Shown: one piece after another, positions 6,001 to 60,547 of the stretch
Position numbering within the stretch: position 1 is the first letter of the stretch
Layout: the number at the start of each line of letters is the position of its first letter
DNA from: Neophaeotheca triangularis
Lineage: Eukaryota
Direction of reading: 5' to 3'
DNA: 60,992 nucleotides
NCBI GenBank assembly: GCA_054600435.1
Contig: BAAIJX010000035.1
Location: 186,001-246,992, forward strand
Program-made: the position numbers and the translations under genes
Notes under the pieces: generated by a model
Databases searched by the model: none
Told to the model about the DNA's origin: nothing
What the model saw: the letters and a program-made list of their open reading frames with translations, nothing else

Positions 6001-7004
6001 GCCAGGTCCATATCGTCATTGGGTCTGCTGACTTCCTGGGTAACCCGGTTGGTCTCTTCAACAATATCAGTTCGGGTGTTGCAGACATCTTCTACGAGCC
6101 ATACCAAGGTCTGGTCACGGACCGCCCACAAGATTTGGGTGTCGGTATCGCCAAGGGAGCCAGCAGCTTTGTCAAGAAGAGCGTCTTCGGCTTGTCTGAC
6201 AGCGTTTCGAAGTTCACCGGCAGCATCAGCAAGGGTCTCGCCGCGGCAAGCATGGACAAAGAGTTCCAGGATCAGCGCCGCATGTCGCGTTCCCGCAACA
6301 GGCCAAAGCATGCTCTTTACGGCATTACGTCGGGCGGCAACGCCTTCGCCAATAGCGTTGCCAGCGGCATCGGCGGCCTCGCGCGACACCCACTGCAAGG
6401 CGCGGAAAAAGAAGGCGCGGCTGGCTTCGTGAAAGGCGTTGGCAAAGGTCTCCTGGGCATGGCGACGAAGCCCGCAATCGGCGCTTTCGACCTCGCCTCC
6501 AACATGGCCGAAGGGGTGCGCAACACCACCACCGTCTTCGACCAAGAAGGCCTCGATCGCGTTCGCCTGACGCGCTTCATCGGCATGGACGGCATCGTGC
6601 GGCCGTACAGCCAACGCGAAGCGCTTGGCCAATTCTGGCTCAAGACGCTCGACAACGGCAAATACTTCAACGAAGCCTACATCGCGCACCTGGAGCTCAA
6701 TCCAGGTAGCGCGGGCGACAAGCAGCCGTCGCGCAACCACAACGCTGAATCCAGTATGCTGGTCATGCTGACGTACAACCAGATCATGCTGGTGCGGGCT
6801 AAAAAGCTGACGACGGAGTGGGAGGTGCCGCTCAAGGACGTGCAGACCATTAGCAAGGAGCGTACGGGCATGAGTATTGTGTTGAAGGGGGGGAGCAATG
6901 GGCCTTTCATCCCGATCGCTGATGAGGTCAGTCGGAATTGGTTGTATAGGCAGGTCGCTGTTGCTGTCAATGCGTACAATGATAAGTGGAATGCCAAGGG
7001 ATAG
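1..7004 (+). CDS. VPS13: Vacuolar protein sorting-associated protein 13 (lipid transfer protein), 5'-truncated by the window; exons <1-3761 and 3815-7004
   Basis: Two long ORFs are joined by intron 3762-3814 (GTAAGT, TACTAAC branch, CAG), giving ...NDPLTN-VYPYQRIRLSAPVEVQNLLPF. Vps13 hallmarks: KSAWEPLIEPW, APYRIRNYTG, WIQIDNQL, ILGSADFLGNPVGLF-like (VIGSADFLGNPVGLF), the ATG_C-like GFVKGVGKGLLG helix region and a C-terminal PH-like end. Confidence 0.96.
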
Positions 7005-7842
7005 ATTGGGTTTGAGGTGGGAGACCTAAGAAAGACTGAGATTGGGGGAAATGGGGCATGATGGTACGGCGTTGGTGGGATCACTCTGGACTTGGGAAAA
7101 TTGCATAGCGGTATTGTAGCCTATGAGTTGTATTCTTTACGTTTTGCGTCCCTCATGTCGCTGCCCATTATGTTCTGGTTTGTTGCCCGGGGCCCTCGTT
7201 CCCGACAGGTGATTTGCTCGAGAACGACACCGCGAAAAAGAAAGGACCACCACCTACCTGCTCTTCAGGTTTACCTTCAATCTAGCTTCCAGAAGAGGCA
7301 TCTGTCTCCTGCAATGTCCAAGTGCCAGATTCGATGCCACTCGCTACGCATACGCTGGCCGATCTCCGATGGCACCCCTCACGACCTTGAGGTTGGAAAC
7401 ATGAAGAGACGAAAAACGTACGTTGGTTAACGGAGGGGGTGAGTGGCCCATTGGCAGGCAAAGCAGGTGATATAATAATAAGACCACCCAACTGATCGAG
7501 TGGTCTTCGAAAGCTTCTGCTCACGTCTATTCTCTTACCTCCTACATTGAGACAAAGGACTACCACAACGCTGACCCTAGCCACCCAAGAAATGTAATAA
7601 AAACAGCTACAGCCAGCTGAGTCGCCTCTATGCGGTGAGAAGTTCCACTGCTTGCTCAGCACAGCAAAAGGAAGGGAAATTGAGAGAAAAAAATTGTAAA
7701 GATACAACAGGTGGGATTCCCACGTGGTCACCCACCGTAGTACTAATCACCCGCTTCAGTGCTTGAATATGGCAGAGCGGACTATATTGCGGATGCCTAG
7801 TTCTCCTAGCTTATTCCTCGAAAAGATCCTAGAAATTCGCCC

Positions 7843-9223
7843 CTAGGCGGGCCCCAATCTGCTGAATCTCTCCCGTAACATTTCCAACACTCCCCTTCCG
7901 GAGTCAGATACCGTTGCCGGATTGGGTGCAGGCCCGGCCGGCGGTGGTGGTCTTCGAGATGCCCTTGGACGTGTACCGGCAGGTGATGAATACACTTGCC
8001 TTGGGATCTTTGGCCGCTGGTTAGAGCTTCTAGGTGTCGCTACCGGACTTGCCTCGCTGGTCGTCGCTATATAGTCGTCTGATCTAGTGTGTCGTTGCAC
8101 CTGCAGTGATTGCGTGCGCTCGGATTCTCTAGGTACTGTCGGTACTGTCGGTCCTAGTCCGTCTTCCGGCACTAGCGCTATCTGCAATTGCTGATTTCGC
8201 CTTTGCGCCGCCTCCTGCGCCGCTCTCGCCTAATCCGTTCTCGCCCGGTCCTCTGCTACTCTATCTTGCCGTCGAGCTTCATTCTCGATCTCTGTGTACT
8301 CCGGATCCTCTATCCGAGGCGTTAGCGAGTGTAAGACTGAGAGCAGTGACTAACATACTTTTGAGAATATTCGACTTTAAGAAAAAAGCTGATCTCGCGC
8401 GGTTGGCAGCCAACAAGTTGTACTCTATGATGTGATCACTCCCGACCAGCATGTCGACAGGAAGATCTGGCATCACGTAACACAAGGTGGTGCGTGTTAT
8501 AGCCTGGTCGATCGCATACCACTCAACCCATACCTGTTGTCGCACTGTAATGGGGTTGTTGTTGATGGTCATGAATATTTCGTCTTTTTCGTCCGAAAGC
8601 AGCACTAAACTTGCTTTGTGGATAAGCTTCTAGGAGACAAAGCTAGCCGTGCTTCCTATGTCAAGCTGGATTCGAGTGCTCGTGTAGTTTCCATTTGGCT
8701 TCTCGATATGTACGCTCCATATAAAGTCGTTCACGTGAACCGTGCCTAGACCACTTTGTCGATCGGTCGGATGTTTCAATTCCTCAGTCTCTCGCTCGAG
8801 CTTCTCTACAGTTTCCTTTATTTTTTCTAGATCGATGTCTGTTCGATGAAGGGAACTCATTAGGTAGTCTGGCGAGCTGAGGAACGTGGTGGCTGATTCT
8901 GGAGCGTCTTCCACGTTCGCGATTCTGCGTGATAAGCGCTTTCCCCTGTGGTGGTTTAGAGTATAGTCTTGAGTATGCGTGGTGGTGTGGACAGGTGTGC
9001 TTACTCCAGAGTAATTCCCTAGAATCTGGTGGGTATGCGGACGAACTCCATCGCTAGATCTATCGTCTGTCTGATACAATGGATCATTCCCATCGTCACT
9101 TCTTGCCCTACTTTGATCTTGGTGTAGTGGACGGCGGCCATCGTGTTCAGATATGCTAGAGAAGCGAAAGTATGGGTTGTTCGGTGAGCGTGCGGCGGCG
9201 GGAAAGGTGTAGTTTGGGACCAT
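7843..9223 (-). pseudogene. Disrupted gene encoding a retropepsin-like (clan AA) aspartic-protease-fold domain flanked by low-complexity/coiled-coil regions; exons 9223-8359 and 8309-7843
   Basis: ORFs 8630-9223 and 8279-8605 share a frame separated only by TAG at 8632-8630. Read through they give TRIQLDIGSTASFVS*KLIHKA...LCYVMPDLPVDMLVGSDHI, matching retropepsin LD(T/S)GA/S..SFIS and D(hydrophobic)2G.D motifs. A canonical intron 8358-8310 (GTATGT/GCTAAC/TAG) joins in frame to the 7843-8187 ORF through a second TAG at 8232-8230. Total 444 codons. Confidence 0.65.
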
Positions 9224-9477
9224 GCAAGTCTATATTGCAAAGCCCTCAGCCAGATGTTGCGCCCCAACCTGCAAATCTGCTGCACCCCATCACGCGCTCG
9301 CTTAAAAGAGGCCGCCTCGTCACGCAGTGGCAAATCGTCATGGCGCACATCACCAAGCTGCAGCTTTGGGGCACTGCTCAGCTCGCTTGAACAGCCTCAT
9401 CGCATTGCATTACATTAGGGAGACCCCCAGTATTGCACGTACTGAGAATACTCACCTCACCTCACTTCACCAAAGTT

Positions 9478-10613
9478 ATGTCGTCGCTACAAAGCAGCGG
9501 TATGCCCAGCGCAAGTGTACCGTCCAATATTGTAAAGCCAGATGCCCCAGCCGCAGGGTATCCGCGTCTTGCGGACTTCATGTCCAAATGGCCCGAGACA
9601 CAGATATTTCGATCGTTCCACCAGCTCAACATCCTGAATATTCTTCGACTTCAAGCAGAACTACACGATTTGGACAGACGACTTACTGAGACCCAACGAC
9701 TTGATGAGATCCAAAACTCTGATGCCGAGATCAGTAACAACAAGAGTTTTTCGGCCATGCGTAGTGACGAGACCAGTGATGAAGAGTCGCAAGCATCTCT
9801 GCTCGAGGAGATCGACCGGAAGCTCGAAAGATACAGTTAGTCTCATCGGAGTTTACGGCCAACGAATAGTTGCTAACATGTCTCCGGACACTGCTATCTT
9901 GCAGCTGTTCCAGCTCCGCAGCGTCCAATCCCCGAGAAAGCAAGACATGGACAGCTTGCTGGAGTACTTACGCGGACGCGTTGACATAAATAGCGAAGAC
10001 TTCCTGAGGTACCCAGAACGAGACACTTGGCCAAACCAGTATTCTGTGGAGTATCGTGACCGCATTTTAGATGAGTACGTTACGGCTGACCCGCGGGCAT
10101 CGAAGCGCGACTACTTCAGCATCCTCCTGGAAGGAGCGTTACTGTACATACATCATCGCATTTGGCTGTACTTGCAACGCAAAAACCGCAAGTCAGGCGA
10201 GGTAAGCTTTCGCGGGCGGCGAATCTAGAGTGTTCAGTGGTTCCTCAGAGGTGAACTAACAGTATCGCTCAGGCACTTTGGACAGAACGTCCCACGATTT
10301 ACAAGACCCGTCATTCGGAAATCATTGGTACCTCCATTGCAGTGGCGTTAGCGGCCCTGCTTCCTGGTGTCGCGATGCTTGTGTTATATCACGTGAATCA
10401 CATGATATGGCGGATTGTGTTTGCCATCATCTTCACCACAGTGTTCACTGCCTTTCTGAAGATCTTTACGGCTGCGCAAACAGCTGAGATCTACGCAGCC
10501 ACAGCAGCGTACGTCGTCAAGTGCGCCAAAGTCTTGATCGCCATTACTAACAAGCCAGATTTGCCGCTGTCGTGGTCGTCTTTATCGGGAGTGACACTCT
10601 TAGGAAACCCTAA
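9478..10613 (+). CDS. DUF6594-type fungal protein with C-terminal transmembrane helices (possibly defective); exons 9478-9835, 9888-10201, 10273-10508, 10559-10613 (320 aa)
   Basis: N-terminal motif GYPRLADFMSKWPETQIFRSFHQLNILNILRLQAELHDLDRRL and C-terminal TM block ALLPGVAMLVLYHV...IVFAIIFTTVFTAFL...EIYAATAAFAAVVVVFIG, which I recognise as the DUF6594 pattern. Introns 2 and 3 are canonical. Intron 1 has a GTTAGT donor and GCTAAC branch, but the in-frame acceptor reads GG (9886-9887). Confidence 0.8.
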
Positions 10614-11948
10614 GGAGTCTGGCCGGTCACTTCGATATGCATCTCGAGGAAGGCGAAGAGAAACTCTTCGAATTGGCGGATGAACTATTCGCTTCTAGGG
10701 CAGCCGTGGGTTTCCGATGAAGTGCAGGTCATTCGGATTGACGGCCTTGGCAGTGGTCAAGTGTTTTGGGAGGCTCTTTATTTCACGGGAACTGGACGAG
10801 GTGCAGCATCTCCGGGCGTTTCCTTCTTGACACGGTGTTCCAGGAATCGTCAGAAGGTTTTGTGGAGCTCACCCCCAATGGTTGCGTGATACTCCGACAG
10901 GGTGCTTGGATGGGCGGTTCGCAGGCATGGCGCCTGCAAGCCGCATGCAAGACAAGCATGCATACTATTGGCTGAAGACGGAGCTAGCAAGTATGCCGTC
11001 TTGTGCTTCATTAACCACTGTATGGATCAGTATTGCAATGAAAAACCACCTGATGTTGTACTTTTGCAAGTGACGTGTCTAGTAGGTAGTACCTGTAGTA
11101 GGAACCTATCCCGAAGATGTTCCATCTACCGATGTTCCGAGCTTACGGTCCGTGCAAATCCAATGCAAAATGACGGGGAGACGACGGCGCATGCGGATGC
11201 CTTAGATTCACTGAGCTCTGGTCGTATCTGAAAGTCATAACTGCGTTTATGTATATAATTATCAACAAAAAGAAGGCGTTAACGAACAAAGGTAGCCAAC
11301 TTGGACAAGACAGCTTCGCCGGCTGGATGCTATGATAGGCAGCGAGAGCTTCACAAGAGCGTTTAACCGCCGCATGTACAAAACTTCGACTCGGACGTCT
11401 TCCCCCAATGCCCTATGACTAGTAGAGAGCAGGGTAGGATAGCTCGAATTGGAGTTGAGGAACTATACTCTGAACACCACTCGCCTCGAGCCGACTCTGA
11501 TGAACTCTTCTTGATTCGATCCGACTCCGCTCCGACTTTAGCCTGGGGATTGAGTAGCCGGTTGGAAGGCGAAGCTGGTTGATCGTATCCCCCTCCCTGG
11601 CAGCCATACTTGTCGTGATGTCGATTTCCCGAAAGCTAGAGGTGAGGGAAGGTATCAATGTCGTGGATCAGGAGGGTGAGAATGAAGTCGGCAAAGTTTG
11701 AGAGCACAAATTTTGGAAAGCTGAATTCTGAGAAATAAGGGCAAAGCCGATAGATTGAACAGACTTGTGCCATTGGTGACTTGATCTACTCATACAGTCC
11801 ATCGTTGCGTATTCGAAAGACTGAAAATTCGCACTCAACGCCTACCAAAAAGAAAAAAAAAAGAAAGAAACAACACCTTCTCTTCAGACCCCTTTCCCTT
11901 CACCACTGACCTCTCAAATCTTCTCGTACCCGGCATACAGACTCTACT

Positions 11949-13599
11949 CTAGTGGGACTTGATCCACTTAGCAGCCTCGCCGTAAGTACCGCCGTAGCTC
12001 AAGTGGCTGCCGGAAGGCTGAATGTCACCACCAGCACGGCTGCACAAGAAGTCGCCCTTGGCGCAGACCTCGAGCGACTTCTCCTTGGGAACGCCCTTGA
12101 AAGACATGCCGTTCATGGGGTCGCCGAAGCCAACGGCCAGATCGGCTGGCGCGCCCTTGCCCAGAGCGTTGTGCACGACCATGGCGCCTTGCGAGTAGCC
12201 CGCGAGCACGAGCTTGGTGTTGGGGCACTTGGAGCGGGCGGCTTTGGCCATCGAAGCCATGGTACCGCCACCGGCACCGCCTTGGGATGCATTGCCCGCG
12301 GCGGACGCGGGGTATTTCACGCCTTGGAAGTCGGTTCCGCTACCCATGGCGCGCTTGAGGCCAGGTCCAACAGTGTTGCCGATGTCTCCCATTTCACCAG
12401 TTCCACGGGCGCTGTATTGCACAGGTTAGTAAGCTGTGTGGGACAACATGCTGAGGAGTTGTACTCACTAGATGATGGTTGTGCCAGCGCAGCCTGGGCT
12501 GCTGGCGCCAGAGCCACCGGAAGAGGCACCGGCGTCAGCGTCAGCGCTGGCGTCGGCGTCGTCAGAGCCGCCTCCCATCAGGCTGGCCAGGCCACCAGAG
12601 CCACCTCCGAGCGAACCGAAGTCTGGGATACCTCCACCTCCACCAAGCAGACTGCCGATTCCGCTGCCCTCAGAGTCGTCAGCTGCCGTGTCGTCGGCGG
12701 CACCAGCATCCGCTGTGGCGTCAGTGTCGGCTCCAGCAGCAGCAGTAGTGGTGTCGCCGCCTCCACCCATCAGCGAAGAGAGGTCTGGCATGCCACCGCC
12801 ACCACCGATCAAGTCAGAGAGGCCACGCTTTGCCATTTCATCAGCCGCAGTGCCGGTAGGAGCCGCTCCAGACGGGGGGAGGACGCCAGCAGATGCTGTG
12901 GGAGCGTCTCAAGGCAAGTTAGCTTGCCCGGTTCCGCTATTAATATCGAGAAGAATAATCACTCACCATCGTCATCGCCGCCCAGCGAGCCCAGCTTGTC
13001 TCCAAAGCTGCCAGCCGATGGCGCGGAAGCGTCTAAATCCAGGTCAGCTTGCGTGATCGCATAATCATATAAGTTCAGCACTCACCATCATCGCCACTAC
13101 CCAGGGATCCAGGAAGGCTACCTCCAAGGCCGCCTTCAGGCTTGGGCATATCCTTCATAAGCTCGGGCAGCTTGGCAAGCAATTCCTTGATCTTCTCGCG
13201 CAAGTCTTCGTGGTCGCCGCCGGCGCCGGGGAGCGCTCCCTCGAGACCGCTGTCGCCGCCCAGGGAGGGAATGCCGGTCGGAGCCGCGCCAGCTGGGGGA
13301 AAGACACCAGCGGGTGCGCCATCACTGTCGTCTCCAGAGCTGGTGAGAGAAGGGACGGCGTCGTCGCCAGCGTCGGCGCTGTCCCCGCCTAGCACGCTGC
13401 CCAGGCCGCCAGGTGCGGCGGAGCCGCTCGCGCCGGCATCGTCGCCACCCAGGCTAGAGAGACCGCTCATGCCGGATGAGCTGTCGTCGCCGGTGGTGGA
13501 GAGGTCTCCGAGGGGGATGTCGCGCTTGGCATTCTTGACGGGAGCCGCGTTGACGGAGAGCGCGAGGGCGATGAACGCGACGTTGGAAGAGAACTTCAT
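11949..13599 (-). CDS. Secreted cutinase (CE5) with long Gly/Ser/Asp/Ala-rich N-terminal pro-region; exons 13599-13086, 13032-12967, 12907-12469, 12411-11949 (493 aa)
   Basis: Signal peptide MKFSSNVAFIALALSVNA. Spliced C..TTIIYARGTGEMG, C-PNTKLVLAGYSQGAMV (catalytic Ser), GFGDP, C...GDFLC and HLSYG (catalytic His) are the cutinase motifs. Three introns with GTGAGT donors keep the frame (1482 nt). Confidence 0.9.
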
Positions 13600-15069
13600 T
13601 GTTTCGAGAAAGGTGGGGGGTTCGGGATTTGATTCAAAGAGTGGAAAGTCCGGTCAACGGACAGAAAGGAATGGCAACGAAAGTGGTGGGTATGAAAGAA
13701 GGTGGAAGTGAATTGGTTGCTGGAGAGAAAGTTTGAGGAGACAGCTACCTGGATCTGTCCTTTTATGTGTTAAGAGGTGGATGGAGGACGGGGTTGAGGC
13801 AAGGTATGCCGAGGAAGCTTCGAAACGCGGCTTTGCTGGCTGATACATCGACAAGGCGAGGGCTCAACGGTTGTGGCTCGTGCTTGATCGGACATCAGGC
13901 TGCAGAGCTCGTTCAACCTCTTGAGTAACGAATATGATTCGCCGAGCCGAGGTAGCGTCACGCAAGTCTCCTGACTTCGAGTGGTAGATCCCGTAGTGAG
14001 GGTTGGGTTGAACATGAAAGTGCGGCAGGACGCACCCGGTTAGCGATGTGAACAGCGGGCTTGCCAGGCCGACCATTTCGCTAAGACTTGTTGCTGTTTG
14101 TACAATGGTACCGGAGGCCAAGCTTCACAGAAGGCTGTAGCGTGTAATCTTGTCTTTGCTTTGAGTTCGCCTTGGCCGGGGAAAGATTATACGAAGACGC
14201 TGGCTGCTAGGCACATGCTTCCACGAGGCTACGATACGGCACAGTCTGAGACCAAACGTAGGGCCTGGGTTGCTTGACGCGTAGTTCCTCCCGCCTTCCT
14301 GCATCATTTGTAGGGCAACTGCGTGCAATGCCTGTATAATCTTACCCCTTAGTCTGCGTTGCAAGCTATGGGTGTACGTCCTAACAGGCTAGATGGGTCA
14401 TTTGAGATTGCGTTGGACCTGAATTGAATGGCGGAAAGACCTGCTAGACCAAGTCCGACCGCGTCGCCTCGTGAGGTGGCAAGCTGTCAAGTCTCAGCAT
14501 GGGAGAGGTGAAGCAGTCGATATGAGTAGAGTAAAGTCAAAAGGTCTAAGCAAAGGGGATGCCCTGTGGTGATGTTCAAGCTGGGACGTCTCGGGCCGAG
14601 CCACTGTGCACCCGAAACAAGGGCCGTTTCGGAAACACAGATCTGCTGATGAAACATGGCAACTGTGCCATTCTCCCGGTTTGCATCATTTCGCTTTCTG
14701 AAGGCGTACATCCTCCCTCGTGAGCGTTGTCTTGCCTTGCGAATTCATGATCTCGACGTATCTTCGTTGCCCGTCAGAATCTCGTTCACAGATATTCCAA
14801 AGTCAGCGCACAAGACGCTCGAGAACATCCTGGACCGTTTCAGTACTTCCCGTTAAAACGTCGACATATGTCGTTGACGTGTTCTTGGGTTTCGTGAGGC
14901 AGTCCAAACGAGGGCTCCACTCTGCTCCTGAGAGCCGGCTGCCATCGAAGGTGTTATTGTGCAATCTGCACGCATCCCCGTCCCAACTTTCCAGAAGGCT
15001 GCATGCGCCTAGATGCCTTGCATCTTCCAGTGGCGACTTCCTCAGATGCATCAGTCGTAGACTCAATCC

Positions 15070-18324: not shown

Positions 18325-19503
18325 TTACTCGTAGCGGTAGCAGAAGGGACCGGCGAAGGTGTCCATGAGGTCGCCGAATCTGACGTCGTCACCGGCAAGA
18401 CCGAACGAGATCATCTCGTCGAGGTTCATGGGGTCGCTGGGAGGGTTGTTGGCGAGGGTGTGAGTGCCGGAGATGACGTCCTGGCGGCGGTAGATGTCCT
18501 GGCCTTGCCAGACGTACCAGACGCGGTCGATCATAGCGTGGTGAAGGAAGAAGACGGGGTCGGAGGGAGAGGCGTGGAAGTCACCCATTTCAGTGCCGGC
18601 GCCGAGAGCCCAGTGACCGCCACCGTGGCAGCCCATGGGGTTGTCGTTGCCGCCGTAGCCTTGCATGACGTCCTGGAAGTCCTCAAGGTAGATGTTGTCG
18701 TTGATGAGGGTGGTGACGTTGGTCCAGCTGAGGAAGCGCGAGCTGAAGAAGCTGTTGAGGTCGCGGGTCATGCAGCGCGGGTTGTAGTCCTGGTCGTTCT
18801 GGACGTTGTCACCGAAGGGCGAGTCGAGCGGACCCAAGTTCACGGTGACGTCGGAGAAGGGGCCGCGCTCAATGCAGCCACCTCCAGAGCCTGGCGGAGC
18901 GGTGAGGCCGAACAGGCCGAGGTAGACGTCTTGACGGTCCTGAATGGGGAAGCCGTTGCTGCCCAAGCTGAATTCGTCGCCGTTGAACATGGGGTTCTGC
19001 TCGGGGGCGTCGGCGTTGATGGCCCAGTTCCAGTACGGCATGTAGCTAACGTAGCCGCAAAGGTTACGCAGGTCCTCCTCCAAGAGGTGGACGAAGTTAC
19101 GGTGCCAGGCGAGGAAGTCGGCAGTGACGTGGATGTTCATGGTCATGTCGATGTGGGTAGCGACGAACTCGTCCCACCTAGACCTAACGCCGGGGTATTG
19201 GTTGCGCATCTCGTCGGTGGTGACGCGAAGAGGCTCGTGGTTCATGAGGCACGTGGCAGCGTCGGTGAAGGACTTGCGGTCACGCTGGCTCATCTCGTTC
19301 CATTCCCTGCGCACAATGGCATCGTCGAACTGGCATTGCTGGTCGGGCCTGTTGGTGATGTTCCACCTGATGTTGTCGTTGGCAATGTCGACGAGGTCGG
19401 CGAAGGCGGCGCCGTTGCCCAATTGTTCGGCCGAGTAGTCGTTCTGGGCCAAGGCAACCGAGGCAGTTGCGGCCAAAGAGGCGGCGGCGGCGGTGAAGCG
19501 CAT
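18325..19503 (-). CDS. Secreted tyrosinase / type-3 dicopper polyphenol oxidase, single exon (392 aa)
   Basis: Signal peptide; VRREW; CuA H...IHVTADFLAWHR; PYWNW; CuB HGGGH...SPSDPVFFLHHAMIDRVW; terminal CYRY tyrosine motif. No C-terminal shielding domain. Confidence 0.95.
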   Translation of the reverse strand: MRFTAAAASLAATASVALAQNDYSAEQLGNGAAFADLVDIANDNIRWNITNRPDQQCQFDDAIVRREWNEMSQRDRKSFTDAATCLMNHEPLRVTTDEMRNQYPGVRSRWDEFVATHIDMTMNIHVTADFLAWHRNFVHLLEEDLRNLCGYVSYMPYWNWAINADAPEQNPMFNGDEFSLGSNGFPIQDRQDVYLGLFGLTAPPGSGGGCIERGPFSDVTVNLGPLDSPFGDNVQNDQDYNPRCMTRDLNSFFSSRFLSWTNVTTLINDNIYLEDFQDVMQGYGGNDNPMGCHGGGHWALGAGTEMGDFHASPSDPVFFLHHAMIDRVWYVWQGQDIYRRQDVISGTHTLANNPPSDPMNLDEMISFGLAGDDVRFGDLMDTFAGPFCYRYE

Positions 19504-22500
19504 TATTATGGTATTGGTATAGTAGTAGAAGTAACGTTTAAAAAAAGGAGAAGAAGTCGAAACGGCAAGTGTTTGAGCGGGTAGCTGAAATTAGGAACGA
19601 ATGTGGTGGTGAGGTAGAAGGGTAGGTGGTGAAGGGAGGTAGGAGATGCAGAGGATGGAAGAAGTTGAAACACTCACGGCTTCGTCGTGGTGTTATAATA
19701 CCTTGGCCAGGCGAGCGACTCAACTTTCAAGGGAGGTAAAGGATTAAGTTTCTGCTGCTATTCTCGTAAATTAGGATCGCTTTGACCGCGTAGTCAGGGC
19801 AAAAAGGGCCTACCTACCCCAGCCCGAACGTGCATTGAAGCAGGGGGAGGAGCCTAGGAGGAGGAGGACAGAAACGTCGACGGCGCCTTTTCGACCAGCC
19901 CCCCTGAAGCTCCACCAACCTACCTATAGTACTAGTAATAATAATCGCTCGCTCGCCAATGCCCCGTCGCGCTGGCTCGGTAACCGTCGGAGCTTGGCAT
20001 TAGGGCGGAGCTTAATTCTCAAACGGCTGCCGCCCCGCCCGTCGCCTTTTCTCAACTTTCTTCCGTCGCGCGAAAAGGGGGTACCTACCGTACCTACCTA
20101 CACTTACCCTATGTACTTAGTACCTACATCAGGCTCTAGGGCAACGACGTTGAATCGGGAAACATCAGCATGGATGCCATCAGTAGCATCGTCCACCGGT
20201 AGCATCGTAGCATCGTATCATCATTTCAAAAGATCATCAGGTGACCCATGGTCCGCCTAGCCTTAGCCTTAGCCTTTAGCCTTACTACTTATTACTAGCC
20301 TTGTGCCAATCCGCCCGGACGAGTCACGACATATCACAAGCCTAGGTACCTAAACCTAGGTGTTGGACAGGCCGAGAAGGAGGCGTCCGCTTCGTAAATT
20401 CCAACGGTGCCTGACGGTACCTGACTAGTAGAGGTAAAATACTACAAATGACATGTGCTGTTGACCAACCATACCACGTGATGCCATCTTAACCCTCCCC
20501 TCCCTTTCTCGTGTTTGTGGATTCCACGATTCACAAGCGCCTCGTGATGGTTGACCTGTAAATCACATGAATCACATGATTGCCCTCAAGCAATTGCAAA
20601 GCCTCACACACAGACCGCTGAAATACCTGGCCGACCAGCTCAAGACTCGCGATCCGCTCCGTCATCACCACCAACACCATAGCGGGACTCGCCTTAGACC
20701 ACGCAATCGCCCCTAAAACACCATGGGCCATGTATAATGAGTATTCGCGAACACGAGCAACGGCTTCCATTCCATCCTCGCCAGACAACCTACTGTATGC
20801 ATCTATTTCACTCCCAAAAATCTTTAATTCCGCCTTTGGTGATCGCGGCTGCCGGGCAAGCTTCGGCGGTTGGAATGCCGCCGCGATTGGGCTTACTGCA
20901 GCAACATCCCAGGAGAGGTGCGGTTGCTGTGGCGGGGGGGGCTGGACTGCTAGCATTAGGGCTGCAGGACGTTTCCACCGCTTCAAGCCACCTCTACAAC
21001 CATTGCCATCGCCATGGAGACTCGGGATGAGTGAGCTCGTACCTACCTTACCGGTGCGTTGCTAGGAAGCAGCCGCAGCCTTGACGGACGCCCCGTCGCG
21101 TCTTTCACGCATGTCTCTCCTGAGGTGAGGTACCTTACTAGTGAGGGATCTGGTCATCAGCCGCCGAACTAGTATGGCATCAGGCTACGAAGCAGAGCTA
21201 GGAGAAACCGTATCTGTACCCCGAACGCTCAACGTCTACCAAACGGTTCTCTCTTTCTTCTAAATTTCTACGAGCAATTCCACTAGGTAAATGACATGAT
21301 GCCAGGTCTTGCAACTCGCCACCACACCCGTCACTACTAGACAGGCAACCTACGAACCTGCAAGCCTGCAAAAGGACCATCTTGGCCAGCCAGCCTCTAC
21401 GCCGACGTTCTCCGGAAAGCTCCAAGTCGGCTGCGAAGCGGAAAGCTCACCCTTTGCTAAATACAGACGCGGTAGTTTCAGAGCTACAAGGCGGCTTCTT
21501 GCTATAGTGCCAATAGCCCGGCGACTAAATCGTATGAACGCAACACGTTAGGGGGAGTCGGAGCCGCGACGGTGATGACATCTCCCGGTATCTCGTATTC
21601 GTTAAAGGGGATTTTGTATGTACCCCGGGCGTTCATTAGAGGTACGGCCACCCTTCTGCTTACATGACGCGACAAGAGGATTTGAACCGAGGAAGTACTG
21701 TATGCCCTCGGTGGAAGTAACCGGTGCCGTGATATCCTAGTCAGCGAGCCAGTTGTCAGGCGTAAGGAGTAATGTCTTCGGCAATGCTCTGGCAGGTTTC
21801 GAGCGCCCTCGGTAGATTGTTCGACCATATTGTGCCTTTCGTTAGTTGAAATTGATACGGGGCAATCGGGGAAAGCAGCTACAGGTAGTCGATGCTAGGG
21901 AGTGACGGAGCTAGCCACTGACTAGGGAAGCAACGGGAGAGCACCTACGACTGTCCTAGACGCTCTGCTGTGGTTTTGAGGTGAAGATACTAGCTGATAC
22001 CTTCGAAATACTTCCCACGGCGGCGACCTGAACACCGACTACCCCGTCCGCCTCGGCAGCACGAGCACAGTCTCCCTAGCACGAAGCTGCTGTCTCGCTC
22101 CCGCCCAAGACAAGCAAAGGTAGCCACTGGCGAATGGAAGCCACATAGAGCGACCTTTAGCCTTTGGCCCGCGAGCAAGGGGGAAGTGCTCGCGCCAGAC
22201 ATGAACGTCAGATGTAGCAACTTCCACGACGTTTCAACACCGACAGCGCTGGGAGGAGAGAAATGCTTGCCAAAGGCGGATTTTCCCGCTGCTACCAGCT
22301 TCCACGGCTCATCACCTCCCCGACAACCCATCCGCGCAACAAACTCGCCCTTGTCCCACCCAGGCATCTCTAGACCTTCGGCCCGGACTCCCAAGCCTCT
22401 TCCCTCAGCGCCTTATACGTGCCCAGACCGCAGTTATACGAGGATGCAGGTTCCATAGCGAGCATCAACAGCCGGGTCTTCGGAACAATCAAGAAAACCG

Positions 22501-24079
22501 GGACGCTTTCGGTGTAGACGACGAGTACACGGCTGGACTCCTTGTAGCCATACCTTGACGAGCTTTCTCGCAAAGCTTTTCGAGTAGTCACCAGAGTTGG
22601 TAGTTCTCGAACCGTGCAAAGCAACCTTTCGCGACCCGCAGTGCCAGAGCCCTTGGTAGAAGCCACGAACGTTCTCAAAAGTGAAAACAGCGACTGCATG
22701 TCGGGAGGCTCCTCGTTGGTGAAGATTGGTAGAAGATCGTGGATTGTAGGCCATGCCGACATCCCGTTCGAGTTCCGCGAGATCCTCTGCTGACTGGAAG
22801 GGCAATCTTGAAGCGGGGAGCTTGACGAGCGTCTGCAGTGTGCGTGATGCAGGGCCAGGTAGTCTGCGCTGCGAGCTGGGAGGTGGTCCGACTGGTCGGC
22901 CATTGGAGGCGTGGTAGAGCTTGGTCGGGTGTGGGACGATGTGCTCAAGAGCTCGTAGCGGGTAGGTACGTCTCGAGGGTTGGGTTTGATTTGGTTTGAA
23001 CGTGTTTCAAGGCACGAAAATTGCAGCGGGCCGTTCTTCTCGTCACTGGGTCGTCTGGCATCTCGGATCCGTCGCCGGGATGTCCAGGGCCCTGGCGATT
23101 GCTGGGGACTCCTAAGGTGATTCTACGAGAGCCGGATCGCTGGTGAGCGCGTGCTCCGGGTTCGTCGTGCGAGAGCAGCCCTTGGAGAAGATCGAGGTCA
23201 TAGAGGCAGGCAGCCAGGCGGGGATAAGGTTGATTCGTTACTGCTCGTCAGTACGGCCGACATTTACCAACTGTACCGTAGTCAGGGATTGAAGGTGAAA
23301 GATACTGGGAGAGTAGTAGAGACAACTTGCCGCTCCCAGCGACGACAGTGAAACTGCCAGCACCAACCCCAATCGTAGTCAGCTCGCTGTGAAAGTGCCT
23401 ACGGCGCTTACATACTGTGTACCCATGTAACCATGTACCTGGGCAAAGAGAGGTACAAAGGTACGCCCGGAATCGACGAGCCGCGGCGCGCCGAGAGGAT
23501 GCGCGGCTGAGAAGCGAGCTGGACTCGACTTCAGCTTTCGATGCCACGTCGCTTTGGTTCTTGAATCTTGTAGCTGGTTTTGTTCTTCTCTTTTGCTAGA
23601 CTCGTGCTGCTGGGTATTTCATCATCTTTTCTATTCCAGTGACGGTTGTTTCGTCGGGCGGTCGAGCGGTCGAGCATCCTAGCGTGTTTTCCGTTGGTGC
23701 GATGGGGGAATTCGTCGACGGGGTTACTTGGTCCTCCTTACGTCTGTCGGAAGCAGCAGCGCGATGAGTGCCATCAAAAGTCGAGACGCAAGACCGGGCC
23801 GGGAGAAGTCAATAGAGCGTCAACAAGAGCACGGAACTCACAAACACTTGTCATCATCGAGAGACGGAGAAAAGAGGAATAGCGGTTGACGAGAGCAATA
23901 TGTACACGACGGTTCTCTATGCTCTCCCTGGGACGAAAAAGTAGCGGAGAGGTCCGACTCGATCTATGCCTAATCCCAATGCGTCTATGAACTCTGCTCT
24001 TCTGTGCGGCGCTAGTGGTACACGGCACGACCTCCTCGAAAGTCGAACTCCAGGACTGCGGGTGGTTGAAAATGTTCGC

Positions 24080-56738: not shown

Positions 56739-57606
56739 ATGTTTTTCTCCAAAGCTCTCCTCGCTGGTGCTTTCGCGGCCGTCGCGTACGCTCAGTCAGA
56801 CATCCTCACCTTCACCAGCGCCCCCGACTCTGTCACTGCTGGCGAGCCTCGTGAGTATCCCTCGCTACACGTGCATACAGAGAGAGCATCGAAACTGACC
56901 TACCCGCAGAAACCCTCGAATACACCACCGACAACCTTGACGCGCCCGTGACCATCACCCTGAGGCAAGGAGAGGCGGACAACCTCCAGGATGTCACCAC
57001 TCTTACTGGTATGTGGCACAACAGAATTGGCGCTCAATAGCATGGCGCTCTAACACCACCACCACAGACAGCGCAACCGGCGGCTCCTTCACCTGGACCC
57101 CTTCCAACGACCTGACTGACGGTAGCAACTACGCTCTCCAAATCACCCAGGGTAGCGAGGTCAACTACTTCGGTCCCTTCAGCGTGTCGGGCGGCAGCGA
57201 AGTCGTGACCTCGATCCCGGCCTCCCTCTCCACCGTCACCGGCTCCATGAGCATCATGCCCGTGCCCTACCCGATCCCCACGACCGACGCCGCCGGCTCG
57301 GTCAGCTTGGACGTGTCCACCACCGCCGTCGCCATCTCGTCCGCCAACAGCACCACCTACGTCTCTCCCATCGGCCTCGGCACCGTCGGCACCGTCAGCT
57401 CATATATGCCCCGCAACACCACCATGAGCAGGGCGACTCTGACTCCCGCGACCACCACTCAGACGACTGCCGTCGCCACCGAGACTGACCTTCAGGCCAC
57501 CGCCCCTCCCACCGACGAGCCAGAGGCATCTGAGGGCGGTGCTGCTGCTCTCTCCGCCAAGGGTGCTTTGGCTCTCCTGATCGGCGCCGCTGCTTTCTTC
57601 CTGTAA
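56739..57606 (+). CDS. Secreted Ser/Thr-rich GPI-anchored cell-wall protein with Kre9/Knh1 N-terminal-like Ig domain; exons 56739-56850, 56910-57008, 57068-57606 (249 aa)
   Basis: Signal peptide; VTITLRQG..DNL...GGSFTWTPSNDLTDGSNYALQITQGSEVNYFGPF; Ser/Thr stalk; C-terminal hydrophobic GPI signal; two canonical introns. Confidence 0.88.
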
Positions 57607-57716
57607 AACTCTCACTCTCATTGACCAACTAAGCTGATGGAGTGTTTTGAGTGGCTGTATGCGCTCGACGACGGCGTTGGTATGGACCGGGCATTTGCAC
57701 TTGGGTTTTTAATGGG

Positions 57717-57761
57717 TAGTAGTAGTAGTAGTAGTAGTAGTGATAGTAGTAGTAGTAGTAG
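57717..57761. repeat. Imperfect (TAG)n microsatellite downstream of the first GPI gene
   Basis: TAG/AGT run with one internal interruption (tgatag), read directly. Confidence 0.85.
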
Positions 57762-59761
57762 TTGCTAGTGTTTAACGCTTGCTTTTGCTTGGATTGGATC
57801 CAACGCCAGCCGCCTAATAGCTCGTGTACAAAAGTGCTTGTCTTTCAAGCTGACGCTGCGCTCGCTCGCTTGTTTTCGGCTCCCCTCTCCTGATGTGGAG
57901 TCTACCTAGTACGAAGAAAGGTGGAAGGTGAATTGACATAGTGGCTTCAGTAGCAGCTCGTGTCAGCACTCTAATAAAGCGTCTTTAATAGACGAGGGTT
58001 CGTTCGATTGTGAAGGAATAATCATCTAGGTACAAAGCGCTTCATCAATCATCAGCTGCAGGTGGCCTCGACGGCGTCGCGCGACCTAGCCACTGAGGTG
58101 TAGCTATGTACCTTGTCCCCACGCAGATGTCCCGTCACTTATTATCAACAGTCTCAGTTGACGACGACTTGAAGGTACCAAGTAATACCAAGCTCGCAAT
58201 TCCAGCACAGCTCCATCAACCCATCCTAGTAGTACCTACTCTCAAAAGATCCCCCATCAGCCAACTCAGCGCAACGAATCCCAATCGACTTTGATCCTGG
58301 AAAGCGGGGGACGTTGCGAAATTGCGCGCGGCAAGCAACGGGATTCTCAAGAACTCAAAAAACGTCAAGGGGGTTGATAAACCTCAAGGTTCCCCCCTTT
58401 GTTCCTTCCTTTTCAGCCAGCCAGCCACAAGCGCAAGCCCGTCTCTGTGCTGGGCTGGGCTGGGCTGGGCTCGGCTCACGGCTTGCGCGAAATGCTGAGT
58501 TCCAACGGGTTCCTGCATCTTCACCCCGCATGCGCGCGACCTTTGACGAAACCTACCTTTTCATTATTGTTGTGCACAGCTGTCAGCAGGCAGTAGGTAC
58601 TAGTAGTAAAAGTAAGGCTACCTTGTATGCAGTAGGTACATACATACATTACCTAGGCACGGCACGGTTGCATTGTTTGGACGATGCAGGAGATTGTTTT
58701 CCGGCTTCGTCCACGTGACACTGCGCTTGCGCATTCTTGGACTTGTCATCGTCGTCTTCATTCCCCCCGAGCCCGGCCGTCCGATCTGCATTCCTCGAGT
58801 TTTCTCGTCGCGCGCGCGCTCAGTGGGTGGAAGCCTAGTTCTTGGAAGGGTTCGAGACGGGGGGTCTGAAGCGAGGCGCAGCGGCTTTGTTTAATCATAG
58901 GTAAAAGGCATTATTAGATTATTATCATCTCCATCGGCGTCTAGGCCCGGGCAGGCCGTTGTCGGGAAGGTCGGCGAATGAAAGGCCGAGATTTACAGCA
59001 CTAGGTACTGGCCTAGCTAGGTACTACTAGTACTGTACTGTACTAGGTGCCCTCACGTCAGGCTACGAGCAATTCCGCTTGCCATCTACCTACCTATTGC
59101 CTACTTGCCTACCTATACCCAGGTAGTAGGTACTTCCTACTAGTCGCAATCTCTCTACATCTCTAGCTATACCTAGCTAAGGTGCTCTGGAGTCTACAGC
59201 CCTCGATAGACAACACACGCACTGTATTTGTTATGACAATAATAATTGCAGATTACCTAGCGCAAATCATCCGACGACAAGGGAATCTTATTATTATTAT
59301 TATTAATGGGGAGTGAGACATGTCCTTTACCCCTTTTGGAGAGCGGACAGAGCGGCGACGGGCGTTGGTCGGTTGTCATTGGAAGCTAAGCTAAGCCAGA
59401 CCCTTAACTTATTCTCTTACCCTCTTATTAGACTCTTCACCTCTTTCTCCTAGTGCCCTCGCGTGGTTGGGAGGCGGGAGGCGTCTGTCATAGGGGTAAA
59501 ACCGTAAAAGTATATGGGGGAGAGGTTGGTGGAGAGTTACCCCTTCTACCTGCTATAACTGTTTTCATTGTTCTACCTCCTATTGTTATTCGCCTTCGCC
59601 GACCCTTTCCATCTCGAACCCGCTCTTCCGTTTTCGTTGCAACATTCCTTTGCGACAACTTACAAAACCCAACCTACGTCCTTTGCGCGACAATCGCATT
59701 CGCTACCACACGACACCTCTAATACATTACCACACTGCCTTTCCAAGTAAACTTCCCAAAC

Positions 59762-60547
59762 ATGCGCATCACCAGCACCACCGCGCTCGCGCTCCTCGCG
59801 CCCCTCCTCAGCGTCGCCCAAGACCAGCAAGGCCCCAACGCCTTCATCATCCCGGACCCCGGCCTCTCCTTCGTCGCAGGCGAATCCACCACGGTAGAAT
59901 GGGACCCCACAACCGACGGGACCGTGACACTGATCCTGCGCTCGGGCTCCAGCAACAACCTGGCCGAAGGCAGCGTCATCGCGAGCGAAATCGACAACTC
60001 GGGCTCCTACACCTGGACCCCCGACCAAGACATCACGCGCGGCAGCGACTACACGCTCCAAATCGTCTCCGACGACAACCCGGACGAGACAAACTACACG
60101 CCCTACTTCGTCGTCGACTCGGACAACACGGTGGCCAGCGTGACGGGCGACGCCACTCTCGGCGCCCCGACCCAGAGCGCCGCCCTACCACCCACTAGCA
60201 CCGCGCAGCCCACGGGCTCCCTGACCGATTTCCTGTCCACGGCCACCACAACCAACATGGCCGAGTCGACCATGTCGGACGAGGATATGACCTCGGAAGC
60301 TGCCGTCGCCACGACCACCACCGCGACCACGACGGATGCTGACGGCAGCTCCGTCACTTCCACCGTCACCACTACGGCTACCGAGGACGTAAGTGCCACC
60401 GGCGCCGATGCCGAGGAGACTACGGGCGCGGGTTTCCAGGGCCAGGAGGATGAGGACGGCGCCGATGCGGACGAGAGCGCTGCTACTAGGCTTTCCGCCG
60501 TCGTTGGGCTGCTGGGGCTCGTGGCGTTGGGGGCTTTTGCTTTGTAG
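59762..60547 (+). CDS. Second Ser/Thr-rich GPI-anchored protein with Kre9/Knh1 N-terminal-like domain, intronless (261 aa)
   Basis: Signal peptide; AGESTTVEWDPTTDGTVTLILRSGSSNNL...IDNSGSYTWTP...GSDYTLQI...NYTPYF; Thr/Ser/Asp stalk; hydrophobic GPI signal at the C-terminus. Confidence 0.9.
   Translation: MRITSTTALALLAPLLSVAQDQQGPNAFIIPDPGLSFVAGESTTVEWDPTTDGTVTLILRSGSSNNLAEGSVIASEIDNSGSYTWTPDQDITRGSDYTLQIVSDDNPDETNYTPYFVVDSDNTVASVTGDATLGAPTQSAALPPTSTAQPTGSLTDFLSTATTTNMAESTMSDEDMTSEAAVATTTTATTTDADGSSVTSTVTTTATEDVSATGADAEETTGAGFQGQEDEDGADADESAATRLSAVVGLLGLVALGAFAL

Follow-up and report, generated by a model that had tools for sequence, protein, structure and literature searches.

Two genes arranged head to head occupy the interval between a VPS13 gene (ending at 7004) and a cutinase gene in a 60,992-nucleotide stretch of the Neophaeotheca triangularis genome (contig BAAIJX010000035.1, positions 186,001 to 246,992; this whole stretch is the window). 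An earlier sequence-only reading had proposed this arrangement, and Pfam assignments bear it out. The minus-strand gene is predicted to encode a retropepsin and the plus-strand gene a membrane protein of the DUF6594 family. What that reading missed, and what is new here, is that the pair fills a 3,412-bp insertion splitting a 5S rRNA gene in a CCCG motif, so that both genes lie inside the split gene. Sequence comparisons indicate that the retropepsin/DUF6594 pair is real, conserved, and apparently undescribed, and that the window copy, judged by its lesions, is a pseudogene pair within the 5S-splitting insertion. The genes and the spacer between them are laid out as follows.

7843..9141, minus strand: broken stand-alone retropepsin gene, 396 codons; exons 9141-9005, 8945-8359 and 8309-7843
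8946..9004, minus strand: protease intron 1, 59 nt, GTAAGC..CAG; required to join the frame that matches residues 1-43 of the relative P0006
8310..8358, minus strand: protease intron 2, 49 nt, directly after the protease domain
8654..8662, minus strand: catalytic motif, reading DIG; DTG in relatives P0002-P0007 and P0023
9019..9021, minus strand: in-frame TAG, codon 41 of the gene model; K in relatives at the 9021 stop
8630..8632, minus strand: in-frame TAG, codon 151; close relatives carry Q, P or E here and in no case W
8230..8232, minus strand: in-frame TAG, codon 268 of the gene model
9142..9477, no strand: divergent intergenic region, 336 bp, a candidate shared promoter; recognizably conserved upstream of close DUF6594 relatives
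9478..10613, plus strand: DUF6594 gene, 320 codons; exons 9478-9835, 9888-10201, 10273-10508 and 10559-10613
9836..9887, plus strand: DUF6594 intron 1; acceptor GG, not AG, at 9886-9887; the relative P0047 is spliced exactly here

The retropepsin and DUF6594 genes

As judged from its sequence, the minus-strand gene encodes a stand-alone retropepsin and not a fragment of a transposon pol gene, because it contains introns, is single copy, and has no reverse transcriptase (RT) or integrase match nearby; neither of these nor gag was matched among the 8 + 32 window open reading frames (ORFs) scanned, in line with the earlier claim that none of the three adjoins the gene. That reading had also assigned the protease one spliceosomal intron and placed the gene starts 254 bp apart, at ATG codons 9223 (minus strand) and 9478 (plus strand). 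The stand-alone fold stands, although the gene has two introns (9004-8946 and 8358-8310). Both ATG codons are likewise present, but the protease probably starts at ATG 9141, in another frame than 9223, because residues 1-43 of P0006 align with 9150-9022 (42% identity) and the first ATG of that frame is 9141. The ATG at 9223 was dropped as a candidate start for the same reason, and the start codons come to lie 336 bp apart. The encoded protein would consist of a short helical N-terminus, a coiled coil, the retropepsin domain, a charged helix, and a proline-rich tail.

The retropepsin fold expected by the sequence-only reading was recovered in an AlphaFold2 model of the intact relative P0002 (21-row alignment), which contains a confident β domain (predicted local distance difference test scores of 79-95 over residues 51-140). 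A Foldseek search with this model returned Ddi1 RVP domains and retroviral proteases at the top (E 4e-4, probability 1.0), and the closest intact relative matches PF13650 above cut-off, the Pfam families concerned being PF13650/PF13975. A PDB sequence search with the alignment of close proteases gave nothing significant, and no Pfam match to UBL or UBA/UIM was found in 9 relatives and 4 distant partners, several of which are single exons. Searching cluster representatives yielded 19 matches at E up to 0.001, and those that carry names are Aureobasidium hypothetical proteins. The three closest relatives are 63-64% identical to the window protein; all three read DTG, and two of them have Gln at the 8632 stop, so that the earlier proposal to repair DIG to DTG agrees with every one of them and, at the 8632 stop, repair to Gln with two only. 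Across 14 aligned relatives the catalytic Asp and Thr are invariant and the Gly is kept in 10, the motif reading DTG in those 10 and DTA or DTQ in the other 4, and a hydrophobic-hydrophobic-Gly motif downstream of the catalytic site is retained. The window's own copy departs from the D[TS]G motif, reading DIG, and carries three stops besides. A further stand-alone retropepsin-like family with a similar charged tail was also seen (P0008, P0010-P0013, P0018 and P0019, including Aureobasidium records).

The plus-strand gene had been described as encoding a DUF6594-type protein with a helical N-terminal domain and C-terminal transmembrane (TM) helices, and this description was confirmed. Matches to Pfam DUF6594 (PF20237) fall on three window exons, two of them at 61.6 and 48.1 bits, over cut-off, and hydropathy places three hydrophobic helices (amino acids 244-262, 272-290 and 295-313) after a soluble helical N-terminal part. 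Alignment with the spliced relative P0047 gives 70% identity across 319 columns; P0047 has its exon joins at the same places as the window gene and covers the whole PF20237 profile (positions 1-238, E 1e-42). Since P0047 is spliced, relatives are probably transcribed. Read-through frames of P0035, P0034, P0047 and P0048 match segment 9203-9466 of the spacer.

A PDB sequence search with P0047 gave nothing significant. A model of a DUF6594 paralog is all-helical and of low confidence (predicted template modeling score 0.39), and a fold search with it showed, among the 50 matches listed, generic helical hairpins only (best Z 8.8) and no gasdermin, a result that excludes nothing. A complex prediction for the protease dimer and the DUF6594 N-terminal part, in which alignments were not used, scored 0.11 and is evidence neither way. 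One paralog of this genome (G000), at L010:4430-6574 on contig C63, has no introns and encodes a DUF6594 protein whose N-terminus is extended by a long low-complexity stretch; the other four are on contigs C28, C11, C56 and C12.

Conservation of the head-to-head pair

Linkage of the two genes in other genomes, which the earlier reading had predicted, was examined in a metagenome scan that used DUF6594 patterns only. The scan matched 73 stretches, from which 9 loci were confirmed; L093 was left out as bacterial with a shadow-frame match, and L086 and L091 were left out with fewer than 20 bases upstream. All six DUF6594 loci with upstream flank carry a head-to-head retropepsin, and four of these are distinct (three of the six are 99.8% identical). 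A scan with the alignment of close proteases produced 14 pattern matches, none of them confirmed. The divergent partners at the six loci match a retropepsin family profile, built without the distant-locus proteases, at E 1e-18 to 1e-21, while the same profile scores the transposon proteases of this genome only at E 1e-3 to 5e-5. The pair thus stays linked in other genomes down to identities of about 40% for DUF6594 and about 20-25% for the protease, and no other shared neighbor was seen where the pairing persists at 20-25% protease identity. The donor of protease intron 2 falls at the same place and in the same phase in all four distant partners. The genomic background of such domains is low, with 18 PF13650 matches in 25.4 Mb and, as a control, no protease next to any of the five other DUF6594 genes of this genome.

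Close relatives point the same way. Four of the seven closest protease records lie on a contig exactly as long as that of a same-source DUF6594 record (lengths of 6426, 6315, 5113 and 5015 bases), and the rough chance of three such exact size matches is 2e-6. For the 6426-base contig, the read-through frame of P0035 additionally matches 9203-9466, on the spacer side of the protease gene. The pairwise identities of the two genes correlate over 8 pairs (rho 0.85, Mantel p 0.0008), a pattern that, at the level of sequence, is one of common descent as a unit and not of interaction. We consider it very probable that the retropepsin and DUF6594 genes form a functional unit. The distant partners open with a longer helical domain; the nearest named feature clusters of one such partner are PigL_N/SesA-type fungal N-terminal domains (scores 0.76-0.79, without a Pfam match), a likeness that is a lead only.

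The split 5S rRNA gene and the decay of the window copy

The insertion and the two parts of the interrupted 5S rRNA gene comprise the following features.

7699..7782, minus strand: 5S rRNA 3' part (positions 37-120); Rfam RF00001 E 5e-4, below the gathering score; 97.6% to an intact copy of the genome
7783..7797, minus strand: junction, a 7-bp copy of the 5S sequence preceding the break, then 8 extra bases; possibly a direct repeat plus a small footprint
7783..11194, no strand: insertion holding both genes, 3,412 bp; single copy in the genome; without a recombinase gene
11070..11194, no strand: insertion terminal sequence, 93% over 119 nt to the 261-bp insert of a different 5S copy (G000:C45)
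11195..11227, minus strand: 5S rRNA 5' part (positions 3-35) of the same gene; 97% to an intact copy

The split falls in CCCG (5S positions 34-37), with the break after position 35. The genome holds 38 matches to the 5S model, 27 of them above the gathering score, and in 8 other copies the gene is likewise split with its 5' part ending at position 35 and an insert of 45-261 bp, so that at least 9 copies carry insertions at one site. The end of the window insertion is the exact reverse complement of the first 27-nt arm of the C45 insert. Six of the eight other inserts, when folded, form a hairpin at the 5S-proximal end (-16.9 to -25.6 kcal/mol), of which the window keeps one arm only. The 580 bp of the insert outside the two genes contain no ATG-initiated ORF over 70 amino acids that could be a captain, and a genome-wide search for captain (PF11917) and DUF3723 (PF12520) genes, run without a positive control, was blank. 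We judge it rather likely that the insertion is a derelict element of Starship type.

In contigs of public sequencing runs, high-copy sequence at both ends of the pair corresponds to the two parts of the 5S gene. Run X1 may be the source of the window. In run X2, which bears the same organism label, a single contig contains the module, and over about 3,350 bases it shows 146 differences and a further 38 gap letters (4.4%). The divergence is 1-2% for neighboring coding contigs of this run and about 5-6% for short intergenic ones, and that of the module fits an old insertion under relaxed selection. The X2 joints across the module have fewer than 30 letters on one side and may derive from other 5S copies, the half depth of the module contig does not translate into copy number, and runs X3 and X4 barely cover the stretch and so give no evidence of absence. 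The X2 contig also returns from 11068 to sequence like that from 7636 onward (93 letters on the short side), which suggests that in this strain the 5S 3' part and its flank occur once more on the right-hand side of the module; a similar doubled 5S 3' part is found at G000:C15 (L080).

Other 5S copies of the genome hold smaller insertions. Near-identical inserts of 155-213 bp occur at position 35 in five copies, on contigs C60, C5, C66, C27 and C9 of G000 (L016, L020, L030, L031 and L033); they open with a hairpin, hold TACC-rich repeats, and make up a small dispersed family of 5S-inserted mini elements. A second family of inserts or half-sites has a different end (C1 at 844 kb, C80 at 36 kb, C33 at 248 kb and C62 at 58 kb; L034, L023, L036 and L026), with a double hairpin in three members and, also in three, no 5S 3' part in the 10-20 kb examined. 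Around solitary 5S halves on C80, C33, C62, C5, C4, C7 and C21, the adjoining 10-20 kb contained no second half, nor any sign of a large element when long ORFs were read by eye. One distant pair has an intact 5S rRNA gene (L087:11344-11463) about 0.4 kb away on the downstream side of its DUF6594 gene.

Lesions in both partners were noted by the sequence-only reading and are present, four in the protease gene and one in the DUF6594 gene. The latter is without internal stop or frameshift, its sole lesion being the GG at the first acceptor. Retention of intron 1 would lead to a stop at codon 121, and the next five AG dinucleotides to early stops; loss of function is likely but not certain, because two in-frame AGs remain, the first lying before the branch site and the second 57 nt beyond the normal acceptor. 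The proposal that these lesions reflect co-decay of a functional unit finds weak evidence, because the counts are four against one and the insertion diverges between strains about like intergenic DNA.

The locus was also described as TpA-rich. The TpA/ApT ratio is indeed raised at the pair (0.88 and 0.78, compared with 0.52 in VPS13 and 0.51-0.66 in intact relatives; 0.51-0.64 in intact partners for the 0.88 value), but mildly, and tests for the bias of repeat-induced point mutation (RIP) are not significant, with 16 C>T/G>A against 9 reverse changes relative to the relatives (p 0.23) and 8 of 16 changes forming TpA (p 0.12). The acceptor lesion of the DUF6594 gene is not of RIP type. The shifted composition, together with TAG or TAA stops in 13 of the 18 PF13650 matches of this genome, makes RIP at the locus no more than plausible. 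The highest TpA/ApT of the window (up to 1.5) lies elsewhere, at 19000-22500 and 57000-60000; ORFs scanned at 20534-23122 have no Pfam match, and two Kre9/KNH-like matches lie at 56941 and 59723. Beyond the pair, the N-terminal region of the cutinase (in the stretch 11949-13653) is long and rich in Gly, Ala and Asp; the ORF that follows (13078-13653) specifies a protein of like low complexity, probably secreted and without a Pfam match.

Proposed function and relation to known systems

The reading we favor, with about even confidence, is that the window holds a dead copy of an old two-gene unit that reached a 5S rRNA gene as cargo. Directly supported in this reading are the fold, the linkage with conserved intron positions, the topology as judged from hydropathy, the damage, and the insertion site. 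In an intact unit, both genes would be co-expressed from the short divergent spacer. Clan AA enzymes with a single lobe dimerize, and the retropepsin may do so through its helical N-terminal part, or under the control of that part, to build a two-aspartate active site. It would then cleave the membrane-anchored DUF6594 protein within its cytosolic part and thereby switch it. We lean slightly towards such direct control of DUF6594 by the retropepsin. The output might most plausibly be a membrane or cell-death response triggered by stress or non-self, the least supported step; a cell-death or defense role is proposed because of the analogy to protease-gated fungal gasdermins, and we regard it as rather doubtful; the allorecognition role suggested by the earlier reading is likewise hypothetical. 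More speculatively, and in our view fairly unlikely, DUF6594 proteins could be an unrecognized class of protease-gated membrane executioners in filamentous fungi. A dedicated retropepsin, with a helical N-terminus of the cell-death type, would then be the switch for one clade, and the module would be carried between genomes by 5S-targeting elements that dwindle to mini elements without a captain. If true, this would be the first death or immunity module in fungi controlled by an aspartic protease.

Several observations weigh against the reading of the pair as an old, protease-controlled unit carried into the 5S gene. First, contig-size matching is indirect evidence of linkage, and three of the seven close proteases had no contig-size match to a DUF6594 record. 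Second, related pairs yield correlated distances without any interaction. Third, three distant loci share 74-82% nucleotide identity with one another and the distant partners may all come from one fungal clade, so that the independent lineages number about 3-4 and not eight. Fourth, all four distant partners read DTA or DTQ in place of DTG, and their clade may therefore be catalytically weak or dead. Fifth, none of the five DUF6594 paralogs of this genome has a protease neighbor by the retropepsin profile within 10 kb, and Pfam likewise identified no protease of any kind beside them (62 of the 81 ORFs with at least 120 amino acids were scanned, 19 being left out as overlapping or antisense to others); the family therefore does not always need one. 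Finally, neither a captain nor a DUF3723 gene turned up in searches that had no positive control.

The fourth observation could also mean that the retropepsin domain does no cutting and is a binding or scaffold partner of DUF6594, a pseudo-protease or receptor whose complex with it signals or traffics at the membrane. All four DTA/DTQ partners still keep the pairing, and long helical and coiled-coil regions flank the domain; we nevertheless hold this to be unlikely, given that relatives keep Asp and Thr in 14 of 14 cases, Gly in 10 of 14, and the hydrophobic-hydrophobic-Gly motif downstream. That the pair is the only cargo of the 5S insertion is compatible with a selfish toxin-antidote cassette, in which DUF6594 does harm when the protease neither removes it nor holds it in check, and the carrier mobile element is stabilized as a result. 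The single splice lesion of the membrane gene, set against four in the protease gene, is compatible with loss of the toxin first, but the order of lesions is not readable from one allele, and in the flanking DNA examined no split 5S gene surrounds any of the four distinct loci from distant genomes (one has the intact 5S gene downstream), so this explanation is distinctly unlikely.

The fold matches to Ddi1 RVP domains raise another alternative, that the protease releases the soluble helical domain of DUF6594 from the membrane anchor to act as a signal, cell death playing no part. DDI2 cuts the ER-bound NRF1 (PMC7369636; PMC10502413), and a soluble part with a C-terminal anchor fits the DUF6594 layout; neither protein has a UBL/UBA or DNA-binding domain by Pfam, however, and we consider such release improbable. 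Hitch-hiking of unrelated accessory genes, linked by a shared promoter or mobile element and without a common function, would accord with the mobile-looking insertion around the window pair and with conservation of the spacer itself in close relatives, but it is very improbable for an arrangement that lasts at 20-25% protease identity with no other shared neighbor seen. Although A-to-I editing that corrects stops occurs in some ascomycetes and all three stops are TAG, an active locus rescued by editing or read-through is hardly credible, since editing gives Trp where relatives have Q, P or E (8632 stop) or K (9021 stop), the DIG change and the lost acceptor would persist, and the transposon proteases of this genome show the same type of TAG/TAA damage.

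A fixed protease partner makes DUF6594 function a directly testable hypothesis, and the split 5S gene illustrates how cassettes of this kind arrive and then decay, while the pseudogene state of the window copy lowers its worth as study material. Literature searches, which did not extend to subscription journals and supplements, found no paper naming DUF6594 or PF20237 and no description of a retropepsin/DUF6594 pair, and the terms 'aspartic', 'aspartyl' and 'DUF' are absent from the text of a 2025 review of fungal cell death (PMC12881547).

Compared with known systems, the window protease has the same fold as those of LTR retrotransposons of the Ty3/Ty1 type (PF13650/PF13975). Unlike them, it has two spliceosomal introns, one conserved in distant partners, is single copy, and has no gag, RT or integrase nearby, and transposon proteases score weakly on the family profile.

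The insertion resembles the 5S-rDNA-targeting Starships, which are represented by the Arwing, Enterprise and Voyager families (PMC11162782; PMC9156397; bioRxiv 2024.06.28.601215), in that its cargo genes interrupt a 5S gene at a fixed site. CCCG is given as the target core of Arwing-family Starships, and 23% of Starship sites as lying in 5S (PMC11162782); the window break in CCCG agrees with the Arwing core, whereas Voyager inserts 20 bp from the 5' end of 5S and the window break is at 35. Captain-less 'derelict' Starships are described, and sizes of 27-393 kb are given (PMC9156397). The window insert, in contrast, is 3.4 kb long, lacks a captain, with none found in the genome by a search without a positive control, and its direct repeat is not clean, the 7-bp target copy at the far junction being followed by 8 extra bases. 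It is a probable derelict of a 5S-targeting element and not a Starship member.

Ddi1/DDI2 shares with the window protease a cellular, stand-alone retropepsin fold, and DDI2 has a known membrane-tethered substrate (PMC7369636). Here there is no UBL/UBA, identity in the fold matches is 12-20%, and the gene is a patchy accessory gene with a fixed neighbor, unlike the universal single gene Ddi1/DDI2.

The earlier reading drew its analogy to het-Q1/het-Q2, and the part of it that stands is the adjoining of a protease gene and a membrane-associated-protein gene, here within 10 kb as in the gasdermin/HET-Q2 clusters. The gasdermin fold is β-rich, whereas the DUF6594 partner is a helical three-TM protein recognized across PF20237, and the protease is a clan AA retropepsin and not an S8 or CHAT enzyme. 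Cleavage and death are demonstrated for clusters of the het-Q1/het-Q2 type in Podospora anserina, and a protease gene of the S8 or CHAT type adjoins about 80% of the gasdermin genes, with clades keeping one protease type (PMC8851545). If our inference holds, the retropepsin/DUF6594 pair would work like such a protease-gated effector cluster; it is not a member, because it contains neither a gasdermin nor an S8/CHAT protease. Published fungal protease-effector clusters combine S8 or caspase-like enzymes with gasdermins; in a retropepsin paired with a three-TM protein, both the enzyme class and the effector class would be new.

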